NCBI GenBank assembly: GCA_965203515.1
Contig: OZ241907.1
Span: forward strand, 1,714,578 to 1,778,577
DNA length: 64,000 nucleotides
From: Spirochaetia bacterium
Lineage (GTDB): Bacteria; Spirochaetota; Spirochaetia; SZUA-6; Bin103
Direction: 5' to 3'
Position numbers and translations under genes: made by a program. The notes beneath the pieces were generated by a model. The model saw nothing but the letters and a program-made list of their open reading frames with translations. It was not told the origin of the DNA and ran no database searches. Each line of letters starts with the position of its first letter. Position 1 is the stretch's first letter. Positions 48,788 through 63,586 of the stretch are shown here, piece by piece.

Positions 48788-51700
48788 TCAGACCGCCCAG
48801 GCGGCGGACAGCGCCTCGGCCTGTTCGAGGACGGTGCGGGTCGCCTTTTCCTGCTTGTCGGGCGGGTAGCCGTGCTTGCGCAGGACGCGCTTGACCAGCC
48901 GGCGCAGGTTGGCGCGCACGTTCTCGCGCAGCGTCCAGTCGATGGTGACGTTGCCGCGCACGGTTTCGACCAGCTCGCGCGCGATGCCGCGCAGCGTTTC
49001 GTCGCCCAGCACCTGCACGGCGCTGTCGTTGGTCTCCAGCGCGTCGTAGAAGGCGAGCTCGTCTTCCGACAGCCCGAGCTGCGCGCCGCGGGCGCCGGCC
49101 GCGCGCAGCTCGCGCGCCAGCTCGATCAGCTCCTCGATCACCTGCGCGGCTTCGACCGCGCGGTTGCGGTAGCGGCGCAGGGTCCGCTCCAGCATTTCGG
49201 CGAAGGAGCGCGCCTGCACCACGTTCTTGCGCCGCCGCGCGGCCAGCTCGCCCTGCAGCAGCTTGCGCAGCAGCTCGACCGCCAGGTTGCGCCGCGGCAG
49301 GCCGCGCACCTCGGCCAGGAACTCCTCCGACAGGATCGAGATGTCCGGCTTCTCCAGGCCCGCGGCGCCGAAGACGTCGATCACCCCTTCAGGGGCGACC
49401 GCGCGCGAGATGATCCGGCGCACCGCATGGTCCAGCACCTCGTCGGGCCGCGCGCCGCCGGTGACGCGCTTGGCCAGCACCGACCGGACGGCCTGAAAGA
49501 ACGCCACCTCGTCGCGGATGCGGATGGCGTCATCGTGCGGCACGGCCAGCGCGAACGCCAGCGAGAGCTCGCGCACGGCGATCAGGAAGCGCTCCTTGCC
49601 CTCCCGCTGCGCCAGGATCTGTTCCTGCGCCGCCGGCAGCAGCGCAAGACGTTCCCCCGCCGTGCCGGCGGTCCACCGCGAGCGGTCGAAGCCGTGGAAC
49701 AGGCCGCAACACACCTCGTACTTCTCCAGCATCGCCGCCACCGCCTCGTTCTGGTCGAGCGCGGTGCGCCCGGTGCCGCCGCTCGCCGTGTAGGTGGCCA
49801 GCGCGCGCTTCAGCTCGTGGGCCAGGCCGAGGTAGTCGACGACCAGCCCGCCCGGCTTGTCCCGAAAGACGCGGTTGACGCGGGCGATCGCCTGCATCAG
49901 GCCGTGGCCGCGCATCGGCTTGTCGACGTACATGGTGTGCAGGCTCGGCGCGTCGAAGCCGGTCAGCCACATGTCGCGCACCAGCACCACCTGCAGCGGA
50001 TCGCCGGGGTCGCGGAAGCGGGCGGCGAGCGCCTCGCGCCGCGGCTTGGTGCGGATGTGCGGCTGCCAGTCCGCCGGGTCGGAGGCGGCGCCGGTCATCA
50101 CCACCTTGATCCGGCCCGCGCCGTCGGCGGCGTGATGCCAGTCGGGGCGCAGGCGCGTCAGCTCGCGGTAGAGGTCGATGCAGATGCGCCGGCTCATGCA
50201 GACCACCATCGCCTTGCCCTCCATCGCCTCCAGGCGCTGCTCGTAATGGGCGATGATGTCCCGGGCGACGAGCTGCAGACGCTTGCCGGCGCCGACGATC
50301 GCTTCGAGCTGCGCCCATCGGTTCTTGAGCCGCTCCTTGCGCTCGACCTCCTCCCCCTCGGTCGCCTCCTCGAAGCCGGGGTCGATCCGCGGCCGCTCGC
50401 GTTCGTCGAGCGCCAGCCGGGCGAGGCGGCTCTCGTAGTAGATCGGCACCGTCGCCTGATCCTCGACCGCGCGCTGGATGTCGTAGACGCTGATGTAATC
50501 GCCGAACACGGCGCGGGTGTTGGCGTCCTGCAGCTCGATCGGCGTGCCGGTGAAGCCGATGAACGAGGCGTTGGGCAGCGCGTCGCGCAGGTGGCGGGCG
50601 AAGCCGTCGATGAAGTCGTACTGGCTGCGGTGCGCCTCGTCGGCGATGACCACGACGTTGCGCCGCTCCGACAGCAACGGGTGGCGGTCGCCCTGCTCTT
50701 CCGGGAAGAACTTCTGGATGGTGGTGAAGACCACGCCGCCCGAGGCCACGGCGAGCTTGGCGCGCAGGTCGGCCCGGCTCGCCGCCTGCGCCGGCGGCTG
50801 GCGCAGCAGCTCCCGGCAGCGGGCGAAGGTGCCGAAGAGCTGATCGTCGAGGTCGTTGCGGTCGGTGAGGACGACGACGGTCGGGTTGGCCAGCGCCGGC
50901 TCGCGGATGATGCGCCCGGCATAGAACGCCATGGTCAGGCTCTTGCCGGAGCCCTGGGTGTGCCAGACCACGCCGATGCGCCGGTCGCCGGGATCGCCGC
51001 CCGGCCGGCGGCCGGCCTCGTAGCGGCCGCCGGTCTCGGCGATGCGCCGCGCTTCCTGCTGCAGCGCCGCGGCGCGCAGGGTCTCGCCGACCGCCGCCCG
51101 CACCGCGTGGAACTGATGATAGCCGGCCATCTTCTTGACCGGCGCGCCGCCGTCGTCCTCGAACACGATGAAGTCGCGCAGCAGCGCCAGGAAGCGGCGC
51201 TGCTCGAAGACGCCCTCGATCGCCACCTGCAGCTCGGTGTAGAAGACCGGCGCCAGGTCCTGGCCGTCGATGGTGCGCCACGGCTTGAACCACTCCCGGC
51301 CGGCGGAGAGCGTGCCGAGCCGCGCCTGCATCCCGTCCGACGCGAGGAGCACCGCGTTGCAGGCGAACAGCGAGGGGATCTCCGCCATGTAGGTCTGCAA
51401 CTGGTGGAACGCCGTCCACACGGTGGCGCCGGCGTCGGCCGCGTTCTTCAGCTCGATCACCGCCAGCGGCAGGCCGTTGACGAACAGCACCAGGTCGGGC
51501 CGGCGGGTGTTGCCGTGTTCGATCACGGTGAACTGGTTGATCGCCGACCAAGTGTTGGCGTCAGGATCATCGAAGTCGATCACCTGCGCCTGCGCGCCGC
51601 GGATGGAGCCGCCGGCGGTCCGGTACTCGACCGTCACCCCGTCCACCAACAGGCGATGGAAGGAGCGGTTGCGCGCCGCCAGGGTGGCCCCGGCCGGCCG

Positions 51701-51922
51701 CGTCAGCTTGCGAAAGGCGTCGTCGAGCGCCTCCTCCGGCAGGTCGGGGTTGAGGCGGCGCAGGGCACTGCGCACGGCGCTCTCGAACACCACCTCCGCA
51801 TGGCTGACGCGCATCCCGTGCGGTCCGGGCGCCATCTCCGGCTCGCCGGCCACGTGGTAGCCGAGCTCCCGAAACCAGTCGAGCGCCGCATCCTCCACCA
51901 CCGATTCGGTCAGCACCGGCAT
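48788..51922 (-). CDS. hsdR: type I restriction enzyme R subunit
   Basis: [16 protein letters not shown] (Walker A), [12 protein letters not shown] (DEAH), EcoKI-like N-terminal nuclease region, 1044 aa. Confidence 0.85.
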
Positions 51923-51953
51923 CGCCCGTCCTCCCCTGTGACGATGACGAATC

Positions 51954-53021
51954 TCACCGTGCCGGCCCGCCGCTGATCACGTTCGCCTTCCAAAGTTGGC
52001 CCAGAGAGTACTCCTTTAGCCAGTCCTGCAGGCGATCCGGGTCCAGCCGCTCGAAGGCCGACTCGCCATCCCGGCGATCGACCACCACGATGTCTTCCGG
52101 CCGAAACTCGCTGACCAGGTCGGCGGATTGCGTGGAGACGATCACCTGCCGCGCTTCACTCGCCGACTGCAGCATCTCCGCCAGCAGCGTAAGCGCGAAC
52201 GGATGCAGCCCCAGTTCCGGCTCATCGATCAGAATCAGCCGCGGCTGCATCGCGGTCGGCTGCAGAAGCAGGGTGGCAAGGCACAGGAAGCGGAGCGTGC
52301 CGTCCGAAAGCTGAAGCGGTCCCAGCGGCGTATCGGCATCGTCGACGTGGTGCCATTCGAGCTCCATGCGCTCATCGACATCCCTGCGATAGACGAAGCC
52401 GCCGAAGAACGGCGCGGCCAGCCGCACGGCGTCGACGATCTCGCGGTGCTCGTGCGGATGGCGTTCATGGAGCAAGCGCAGGAATGGCCCCAGGTTGGCC
52501 CCGTCCGGCTTCAACCGCAGGTTGTCGCGCACCGCCTGCGGGCAGCGCATGCCCGCAACCTCACTGGTATCGTGAAAGTGATACACCCGCCAGTCCCGCA
52601 TCGCCGGCAGCACGTAAGCCGCAAAGTCGCCGCCCTCGATACTCGCCGCCTGCGCTTCCAGGTGGCCCGACCAAGTCGATCTTTCCGGAAAAACGTGCTC
52701 TCGCGCGAACGCCATTCCGTCCGCCACCGGCTCAAGCGAAAAGCCGTATCGGCGGCTGTTGCCGTTGAAGGACAACTCCACGTCCAGACCCGAAGTCCGC
52801 CGGCGACCGCCGAACAGCAGAGCGTCCGCTCTCCCCTCCCGCTTGACGAACAGTTGGAGTCTCTTCGCGGCAAGTTCGGACACCATCCGAAACAGACTCA
52901 TCAAGTTGCTCTTGCCCGCTCCGTTCGCTCCGACGAGGACATTCAGTCCGCGCAACTCGAAGTCCTCCAGCACCCGAATCGACTTGAAGCCGCGAACGGA
53001 CAGTCGGTCTATCGCAGCCAT
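51954..53021 (-). CDS. AAA_21/ABC-type ATPase (OLD/Abi-like NTPase domain only)
   Basis: [13 protein letters not shown] Walker [14 protein letters not shown] Walker B/D-loop. Internal ATG ([14 protein letters not shown]) chosen. Confidence 0.6.
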
Positions 53022-62805: not shown

Positions 62806-62877
62806 ACCGGCCTTGAACCTTGAACAGACCACTTGCCCATACGTGCCAAACGTGAGATATTGATACGTAGCAGCGTC

Positions 62878-63141
62878 ATGAGCACGAAACTCACCCTGAG
62901 CGTCAACGCTACGATCGTCCAACGGGCGAAGGAGTTGGCGAGACGGCGACGAACGAGCCTCTCCGGACTGGTCGAGGAGTATCTCCGATTTGCCAGCGCC
63001 GGCCTTGATGAGCCGCCCGCCGTCAGCGTCCGAGTTCAGGCGGTTGCCGAATCACTGCCGATGCCGCCGGACGCTACCTACGATCGCTTGCAGGAGCAGT
63101 ACCTGCGGGAAAAGCTACTCGGTGCGGAAGATTCTACTTGA
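62878..63141 (+). CDS. vapB: RHH-type antitoxin (VapB-like)
   Basis: MSTKLTLSVNATIVQRAKELARRRRTSLSGLVEEYL. Overlaps the VapC start by 20 nt. Confidence 0.5.
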   Translation: MSTKLTLSVNATIVQRAKELARRRRTSLSGLVEEYLRFASAGLDEPPAVSVRVQAVAESLPMPPDATYDRLQEQYLREKLLGAEDST

Positions 63142-63586
63142 TTCCGACGTCATTCTGGATCTGTTCGTCTCGCGCGAACCGCATCACACGGTCGCCCTGC
63201 ATTTCTTCTCGTGCATCGATCTCGCGCGAGACACCATCAGCGCAACGGCGTCGCCGGTGGCTATGGCCAACGTCGCCTACGTGTTGTCCAAGTTGAAGAA
63301 TCAGGCATTTGCGGTGGGTAAACTGCGCGAACTCAGAACCATGATCGGGGTGTCTCCCATCAACCAAACGGTCGTGGACCGTGCCCTGGCACGTCCGCAT
63401 CGTGATTTCGAAGATGCCCTGCAACGAGAATGCGCGCTGGAGAATGGCATCGAGATTCTCGTGACTCGCAACACCCGCCACTATCCCAAGACCGACGTCG
63501 CTATCCTCTCACCGGCTGACTTCTTGCAGCTTCACGGCGCCGCGCTGGCGCTCATGGGCGGCGGCGGACCGGGCAGACCGTCCTGA
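63122..63586 (+). CDS. vapC: PIN-domain toxin VapC
   Basis: GTG 63122. (M)[13 protein letters not shown] with the conserved first Asp, then further acidic residues through the domain. Confidence 0.65.

Follow-up and report, generated by a model that had tools for sequence, protein, structure and literature searches.

A nucleotidyltransferase-HsdS fusion in the conserved core of a type I restriction-modification operon with two variable, mostly defence-holding slots

Introduction

Which of the genes that lie between hsdM, hsdS and hsdR of a type I restriction-modification (R-M) operon are later insertions, and which belong to the operon itself? The question is raised by a 64,000-nucleotide stretch of a Spirochaetia bacterium contig (OZ241907.1, positions 1,714,578 to 1,778,577; hereafter the window), in which a run of minus-strand genes in the six-frame list of open reading frames (ORFs) spans positions 48788 to 61754. 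Genes were identified from this list and its translations, which were scanned with Pfam, PADLOC and NCBIfam (Table 1). All genes named in an initial annotation, made from the sequence alone, were recovered where it had placed them or a few codons away, with strong family matches, and its description of the locus as a type I R-M operon with several further defence or defence-candidate modules between its genes was upheld. HsdR combines an N-terminal nuclease domain with a superfamily 2 (SF2) motor, HsdM is an N6-adenine methyltransferase (MTase) and HsdS carries two target recognition domains (TRDs) and two conserved helices, all three being encoded on one strand; the locus is a genuine type I R-M operon with six extra modules nested among its genes. 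The nesting of defence genes in type I R-M loci ('embedding') has been published, and the candidate systems HEC-01 and PDC were defined from nested genes, as set out in the available passages of Payne et al. (2024, bioRxiv 10.1101/2024.01.29.577857). The island itself is a further example of this phenomenon, an unusually crowded one in which half of one module is deleted. What is less ordinary is that HsdS is fused to a type VII antitoxin, and that this fusion is conserved.

The MNT::HsdS fusion and its HEPN neighbour

The specificity gene of the window is a single reading frame in which an MntA-like nucleotidyltransferase (MNT) domain precedes the HsdS part. The gene for a predicted HEPN RNase of the HI0074 family lies 5' of it, giving the order HEPN to MNT, and its stop codon and the start of MNT::hsdS overlap by 8 bp. 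The RX4HXY motif of the HEPN protein reads RNDTAHDY, and the GSX10DXD motif of the MNT domain is present as G40-S41, ten residues and D52-L-D54. Against NCBIfam, the HEPN protein matched TIGR01987 at 1.3e-13 and 51.1 bits, under the 55.8-bit cut-off, and the MNT domain matched MntA_antitoxin at 5e-6, likewise below cut-off; an MTPAP-like match was also obtained. In an AlphaFold2 (AF2) model of the fusion, with a pLDDT of 86.7, the MNT domain (residues 12-111) is joined by a disordered 6-residue linker (112-117) to a canonical HsdS consisting of TRD1 (121-276), a helix (277-317), TRD2 (345-503) and a second helix (504-544). Overlapping genes run from the HEPN gene through the gene for a protein of 371 amino acids (aa) beyond hsdS, which suggests that they form one operon; a scan for promoters and terminators returned nothing exceeding background.

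The pair resembles the HepT/MntA pairs of type VII toxin-antitoxin (TA) systems, of which SO_3166/SO_3165 and HI0074/HI0073 are examples, in that both signature motifs (RX4HXY in the toxin, GSX10DXD in the antitoxin) are present, the genes overlap and the sequences match HI0074/HI0073. In these systems MntA uses its GSX10DXD motif to AMPylate the Tyr of RX4HXY, three AMP groups being added and the RNase being blocked (PMC7641770). However, the antitoxin of type VII systems is a free protein of less than 150 aa, whereas here it forms the N-terminal domain of HsdS, a protein of 549 aa, and the usual arrangement is antitoxin-first, whereas here the toxin comes first and the two genes are part of an R-M operon. 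Fused forms that have been published, in the available text of PMC13000451, link MNT with HEPN and not with HsdS. In the literature searched, which included the accessible parts of the HEPN census (Anantharaman et al. 2013) and of the 2026 paper on MNT-HEPN fusions, no MNT-HsdS fusion was found described; a label 'RM_TRD' in Figure 5 of the former leaves it possible that one is depicted there.

Conservation in related loci and public proteins

Related loci were collected by an HsdR scan with one genome per species, which yielded 80 loci from many phyla with HsdR identities of 71-85%, nearly all of them in metagenome-assembled genomes (MAGs); a 1-Mb metagenome contig (L082) and a Ferrovum assembly (L083) were compared besides these. 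MNT lies directly upstream of hsdS in 44 of the 80 loci and shares a single reading frame with it in 38 of the 44. The fused domains belong to four or more MNT clades that diverge from one another (33-79% identity to the window MNT), all of which keep GSX10DXD, and 31 of 34 ORFs upstream of fusions encode HEPN proteins with RX4HXY. In compact loci (e.g. L025 and L061), the entire operon consists of hsdM, 3 bp, HEPN, MNT::hsdS, approximately 20 bp and hsdR. The conserved core of the family is hsdM, HEPN, MNT::hsdS and hsdR. The initial annotation had counted HepT among the inserts; this does not stand, since MNT adjoins hsdS in more than half of the related loci, mostly fused in frame, and HEPN/MNT is therefore a core part of the hsd family.

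The fusion is not limited to one HsdR lineage, because it is also present in L083, where the order is resolvase, hsdM, HEPN, MNT::HsdS, one extra gene and hsdR, and where HsdR is merely 44% identical. Public gene calls, queried with the full-length protein, include dozens of 520-590-aa proteins with both nucleotidyltransferase and Methylase_S Pfam domains, and one NCBI genome encodes an identical MNT::HsdS protein (P0391). The MNT motif was N-terminal in 85 of the 120 best matches and in 40 of the 150 best cluster representatives at 50% identity; the public records label the fused proteins only 'restriction endonuclease subunit S'. HEPN::MNT::HsdS triple fusions of 694-722 aa were found among the homologues (P0396, P0407, P0409, P0415 and P0419) and at L082:8001-10085.

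A different arrangement was observed in three further homologues (P0414, P0429 and P0506), which are HsdS proteins of 655-665 aa with two tandem N-terminal MNT-like domains.

The two variable slots

Two intergenic slots of the operon, slot 1 between hsdM and HEPN and slot 2 between hsdS and hsdR, vary from one member of the family to the next, and defence genes are usually found in them. In the related loci the gap from hsdM to the next core gene ranges from 0 to 3.7 kb and that from hsdS to hsdR from 9 bp to 5.6 kb. A total of 135 same-strand ORFs from these gaps were scanned, and the recurrent families were mostly defence- or toxin-associated (PDC-M24B, AbiJ/Abi_C, SIR2, PDC-S01/S05/S23, HEC-01B/DUF4276, Fic/DOC, ThsB_TIR, Schlafen, RhuM, Mrr_cat, PIN and DUF1828/1829); the commonest single Pfam family, with 9 members, was the 8xMP membrane protein family, for which no role in defence is known. 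The embedding of Payne et al. 2024 is the same phenomenon, i.e. same-strand defence genes nested within a multi-gene system. However, that paper, in its available passages, treats embedded cassettes as separate systems and contains no antitoxin fused to HsdS, whereas the locus of the window has two filled slots and only half of HEC-01.

Slot 1 of the window, 3.2 kb long, is filled by an Rpn nuclease gene, a type II R-M pair and an orphan Phd/YefM gene. None of the three was found in any of the 80 relatives, nor in L082, where slot 1 contains a 167-aa gene and a RelB gene, and they may be later insertions. In the second MTase of the locus, the DPPF motif near the N-terminus precedes FAGSG near the C-terminus, an order that places the enzyme in the beta class, and the predicted restriction endonuclease (REase) is encoded next to it by an overlapping ORF, as in type II R-M pairs. 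The PADLOC matches of both proteins agree with their first reading as a beta-class MTase and a 197-aa candidate REase; the candidate had no Pfam, NCBIfam or PDB sequence match, and neither a plasmid nor a PDB sequence match was available for naming the type II enzyme. The Rpn family consists of toxic endonucleases whose antitoxin is intragenic, and phages are blocked by one of its members (PMC10400941). The N-terminal YhgA-like nuclease domain is common to RpnL/RpnS and the window protein, for which matches to the NCBIfam RpnA and Rpn-family models were weak and all far under the equivalog cut-offs. The hallmark of RpnL/RpnS is an internal start with variable four-residue repeats; in the translation of the window gene a charged C-terminal tail (stretch REGRQEGELKGRRKG) with several in-frame Met codons can be read. 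The Phd/YefM gene is an orphan, as had been proposed, no candidate ORF for a cognate toxin being present on either side of 57075-57356. A sigma-70-like match at 57037-57064 (+), composed of TTGACG, 16 nt and TACAGT, lies just 5' of phd and constitutes weak evidence of a promoter; it sits in the 157-bp region that separates phd from the divergent HEPN gene, a region that Phd might regulate.

Slot 2 measures 2.9 kb in the window and holds the PDC-M02 pair and a HEC-01A-like ATPase. The start of the DUF4365 gene overlaps the stop of hsdS and its stop overlaps the start of the 371-aa gene, so that the A (DUF4365) and B genes of PDC-M02 are adjacent and overlapping. PDC-M02 is a candidate cassette with 894 occurrences in the counts of Payne et al. 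(2024, bioRxiv 10.1101/2024.01.29.577857). The residues D...(D/E)xQxK of the DUF4365 protein are conserved in five homologues, and the protein had no PDB sequence match. The 371-aa protein has a predicted C-terminal oligonucleotide/oligosaccharide-binding (OB) fold (AF2 model, pLDDT 78) and belongs to a family of more than 1500 unnamed homologues. The effector of SPARDA, in the descriptions available, is a DUF4365/DREN PD-(D/E)xK nuclease domain of the same family. However, SPARDA has a short prokaryotic Argonaute (pAgo) and an APAZ component, neither of which is encoded in the 48-64 kb part of the window, and the partner of DUF4365 here is instead the 371-aa protein, which has no detectable family.

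Two side observations concern this pair. A 538-aa homologue of PDC-M02B (P0163) carries an additional NTase_sub_bind (HEPN) Pfam domain and may have arisen by fusion or as a read-through gene call. At L082:10254-10746 the DUF4365 gene matches in two frames and is apparently frameshifted; the contig is a long-read assembly, so that either an error or a pseudogene is possible.

The Walker A (GANGAGKS), signature (LSDGTLR) and Walker B (LILIDEPE) motifs of the AAA_21 ATPase were read in its translation. The gene lies directly upstream of hsdR, as first noted, at a distance of 31 bp, which leaves no room for the HEC-01B (DUF4276/TOPRIM) partner. In six related loci (L002, L003, L057, L063, L072 and L082) the ATPase gene is followed by that of a 207-239-aa DUF4276 protein (HEC-01B), which in L002 scores 1e-69 for HEC-01B and 1e-47 for DUF4276. 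The window has lost half of HEC-01, leaving the module incomplete. The earlier view of the 371-aa protein, DUF4365 and the ATPase as uncharacterised candidate families agrees with PADLOC and the literature.

Composition and age of the cargo

The GC content is 0.54-0.60 at 53.0-56.2 kb and 0.54-0.62 at 57.3-59.0 kb, compared with 0.70-0.73 in hsdR and hsdM, and the GC content of third codon positions (GC3) is 0.62-0.67 in the hsdS TRDs, the DUF4365 gene, the 371-aa gene and the REase gene, compared with 0.93-0.95 in hsdM and hsdR. The low-GC3 block of hsdS and slot 2 starts exactly at the MNT|HsdS junction and ends with the 371-aa gene, a pattern that would fit an exchange of the hsdS-plus-cargo segment by recombination at this junction. 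The closest relatives are L002 (HsdR 85% identical) and L082 (HsdR 86%, HsdM 85%). In both, DUF4365, PDC-M02B and HEC-01A lie between hsdS and hsdR in identical order, at 48-76% identity and with the same local GC depression, so that slot 2 was inherited with the operon, and low GC is a lasting trait of these genes and no timestamp of insertion.

The initial annotation had taken the GC dips as marks of recent horizontal acquisition. The dips are real in both GC and GC3, but for the slot 2 cargo the conclusion fails, the order and the depression being shared with L002 and L082. It had also expected that an old, stable arrangement would appear in related genomes as the same gene content with uniform composition; in L002 and L082 the slot 2 content is indeed the same, but the composition is not uniform. 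The genes flanking the operon in the window were found in none of the 80 relatives, which indicates that the operon itself is mobile and makes chromosomal synteny unusable for the comparison.

Discussion

On balance we favour a reading of the locus as a horizontally mobile type I R-M operon with a four-gene core, two defence-holding slots and an RNase backup tied to the R-M complex. Two R-M systems of different specificities would cut unmethylated incoming DNA. The HEPN RNase would be kept silent through AMPylation of its motif Tyr by the MNT domain and, since this domain is part of HsdS, neutralisation of the toxin would be tied to the R-M complex and would depend on the amount or state of M2S/R2M2S. 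The RNase would be set free, and translation thereby stopped, once a phage had inhibited or depleted the complex; additional nuclease layers would come from the DUF4365 pair and Rpn. The model for such a backup is PrrC-EcoprrI, in which, according to the accounts available, the R-M complex keeps the RNase latent until the phage T4 anti-restriction peptide Stp frees PrrC. In that system (type Ic), as here, a HEPN RNase gene lies inside the hsdMSR operon, and the working model is the same. However, PrrC is one protein that joins an ABC ATPase and, at its C-terminus, a HEPN domain, whereas the HEPN protein of the window is a small stand-alone protein of HI0074 type (144 aa) without an ATPase domain, and PrrC is silenced by non-covalent association with EcoprrI, whereas the silencer here is an enzyme (MNT) covalently fused to HsdS. 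An ABC-HEPN fusion is absent from the locus, the AAA_21 protein having no HEPN domain. By analogy, the arrangement suggests an RNase backup that would be coupled to the restriction complex.

More tentatively, HEPN and MNT::HsdS may constitute a widespread, undescribed guard module, in which the antitoxin on HsdS would read the integrity or occupancy of the type I complex and the RNase would be released by phage anti-restriction proteins; we hold this to be possible but doubtful. Were it true, the problem that PrrC-EcoprrI solves would have been solved a second time, by a different mechanism, and the triple fusions with a Glu or Asp acceptor would be a further step away from control by AMPylation.

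Several points weigh against an RNase backup tied to the complex and against the defence role of the cargo. The coupling of HEPN to the R-M complex is one that we infer from the fusion, the gene order and analogy, and HEPN comes first, whereas in the usual dyad MNT does. In six related loci MNT has a gene of its own, and in L002 the HEPN-MNT pair lies upstream of hsdM, which indicates that the covalent link is dispensable. In three fused loci the upstream ORF lacks the RX4HXY motif, and in five of five triple fusions RX4H is kept but the AMP-acceptor Tyr is replaced by Glu or Asp (RNDTAHDE or RNDTAHDD), so that regulation there cannot be Tyr-AMPylation. The related loci were picked by HsdR similarity and are almost all from MAGs. 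As regards the cargo, PDC-M02 is mentioned in no paper text and no phage-protection test of it was found in the literature, and HEC-01, in the available part of Payne et al. 2024 (bioRxiv 10.1101/2024.01.29.577857), gave no protection in its sole published test; its second gene is, moreover, missing here.

The most serious alternative, which we consider a tentative possibility, is that the operon acts as a genomic sink whose modules are functionally independent passengers, accumulating at places that tolerate insertions, and that HEPN/MNT::HsdS is a selfish stabiliser: loss of hsdS would remove the antitoxin and kill or arrest the cell, so that a type I operon, in other respects readily lost, would become addictive, and no sensing of infection would be involved. 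TA modules classically stabilise mobile DNA, the slot contents differ in almost every related locus, and the operon moves widely between phyla and adjoins a resolvase in L083. The genomic-sink idea and the selfish benefit of embedding are also discussed in the available passages of Payne et al. (bioRxiv 10.1101/2024.01.29.577857). However, addiction would not need a covalent fusion to HsdS, as a free MNT gene in the operon would do equally well; four divergent MNT clades have retained the fusion, and triple fusions extend it. Addiction and a guard function are not exclusive, and both can hold. In the first reading, a plain hsdMSR operon had received the six modules recently, by separate horizontal insertions to which the GC dips point; this now seems unlikely. 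The reality of the dips and the absence of Rpn, the type II pair and Phd from the 80 relatives and L082 are in its favour, but HEPN/MNT is core to the family, and the slot 2 genes recur in the order, with the identities and with the GC depression already described for L002 and L082. In addition, no tRNA was found in the window, a search for flanking direct or inverted repeats as insertion boundaries gave chance GC-rich matches only, and no integrase landmark was found flanking the locus.

Two further alternatives concern the fusion itself. In line with the older reading of HI0073/HI0074, MNT could have been repurposed to nucleotidylate HsdM, HsdR, DNA or a phage protein, with HEPN as a substrate-binding partner and not a toxin. 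Pfam still calls the HEPN family 'nucleotidyltransferase substrate binding protein', and the triple fusions without the acceptor Tyr retain the MNT catalytic motif. However, 31 of 34 two-gene loci retain RX4H together with the acceptor Tyr, and in related pairs HEPN has been shown to be the toxin and MNT the AMPylating antitoxin, according to the accessible text of PMC7641770 and PMC13000451; we consider repurposing improbable. A sequencing or frameshift artefact would account for a shift in GC exactly at the fusion junction, and a low-coverage sibling contig (L001; ENA ERZ26167708, 3x metagenome) does have homopolymer indels elsewhere. This contig is 99.9% identical to window positions 51290-59939 and differs by such indels only; they are probably assembly errors, and in its gene calls they break up HEPN and AAA_21. 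Being the same sequence as the window, the contig is uninformative on variation. It nevertheless carries the same 549-aa MNT::hsdS ORF, as does the identical NCBI protein, and the artefact, to which we assign a negligible probability, is refuted by the 38 of 44 related loci and the dozens of public gene calls that are fused alike.

MNT::HsdS would tie a restriction complex to an abortive-infection RNase by a physical link that is concrete and can be tested; the fusion is spread over many phyla and hundreds of public sequences, under a name that mentions only the specificity subunit. If a backup tied to the complex is real, the PrrC paradigm would be extended past one E. coli example and the abundant HEPN/MNT modules would be given a defined trigger. 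The 371-aa partner of DUF4365 stands for a large family (more than 1500 sequences) without annotation.

Features of the window and neighbouring genes

Table 1. Genes and domains of the type I R-M locus and its right flank, with window positions, strands and the matches on which the names are based.
Feature	Position	Strand	Matches and composition
hsdR, type I restriction subunit, 1044 aa	48788..51922	-	Pfam HSDR_N, SWI2_SNF2, T1R_D3-like, T1RH-like_C; PADLOC REase_I E=0; TIGR00348 1.4e-171; GC3 0.95
HEC-01A-like ABC/AAA_21 ATPase, 367 aa, orphan	51954..53057	-	AAA_21 5.4e-30; PADLOC HEC-01A 3.6e-124, full length
PDC-M02B, 371-aa protein	53208..54323	-	PADLOC PDC-M02B 1e-119, the only match
PDC-M02A, DUF4365 PD-(D/E)xK-type nuclease, 176 aa	54320..54850	-	DUF4365 6.8e-22; PDC-M02A 7.2e-58
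MNT::hsdS, single stop-free ORF, 549 aa	54841..56490	-	Methylase_S x2; N-terminal NTP_transf_2/Polbeta
HsdS part of the fusion, approximately aa 118-549	54841..56151	-	Methylase_S x2; PADLOC Specificity_I 8e-95; PDB 1yf2 5e-34; GC3 0.63
MNT (MntA-like nucleotidyltransferase) domain, aa 1-112, linker 112-117	56152..56490	-	NTP_transf_2, Polbeta, MTPAP-like; PDB HI0073 (1no5) 4e-13
HEPN RNase toxin gene, HI0074 / NTase_sub_bind family, 144 aa	56483..56917	-	NTase_sub_bind 1.3e-17; PDB HI0074 (1jog) 1e-9
Phd/YefM antitoxin-like gene, orphan, 93 aa	57075..57356	+ (opposite strand)	PhdYeFM_antitox 9e-21
Type II restriction endonuclease candidate, 197 aa, start possibly 58038	57481..58074	-	PADLOC REase_II PDLC03515 2.6e-45; GC3 0.62
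Beta-class N6/N4 DNA methyltransferase, 300 aa	58028..58930	-	N6_N4_Mtase 2.6e-49; PADLOC MTase_II 1.8e-141
Rpn-family (YhgA-like) PD-(D/E)xK nuclease, 319 aa	58974..59933	-	Transposase_31 1.9e-41
hsdM, type I methyltransferase subunit, 554 aa	60090..61754	-	N6_Mtase 6.5e-104; HsdM_N 2.7e-26; PADLOC MTase_I 3e-215
Flank: PNP_UDP_1 nucleoside phosphorylase-family protein, N-terminal hydrophobic segment, start inferred	61834..62805	+	PNP_UDP_1 1.2e-40; GC3 0.91, host-like
Flank: VapBC-like pair, DUF6364 (62878-63141) and PIN_3 (63122-63586)	62878..63586	+	DUF6364 7.5e-15; PIN_3 3.2e-15

The right flank consists, as had been described, of a PNP_UDP_1 protein, which is outside the defence locus, and a DUF6364/PIN_3 (VapBC-like) pair. 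A DUF6364 (VapB-like) gene with 68% identity to window 62878-63141 (+) lies divergently beside hsdM at L082:4963-5241, whereas in the window the PNP_UDP_1 gene lies between hsdM and DUF6364. Given this homologue, the mobile unit may extend beyond hsdM.

The left flank consists of ordinary genes, except for an ATPase with AAA_14 and DUF4143 domains at window 42406-43734 (-), 5 kb from hsdR, which matches the PADLOC single-gene candidate PDC-S01 (E=7e-91); the PDC-S01 family is also embedded in four related hsd loci. At the other end of the window, an ORF at 63532-63906 (-) without a Pfam match contains two imperfect 120-nt tandem repeats, 80% identical, at 63685-63900, which encode a motif starting with TITN and lie less than approximately 100 nt from the window end.

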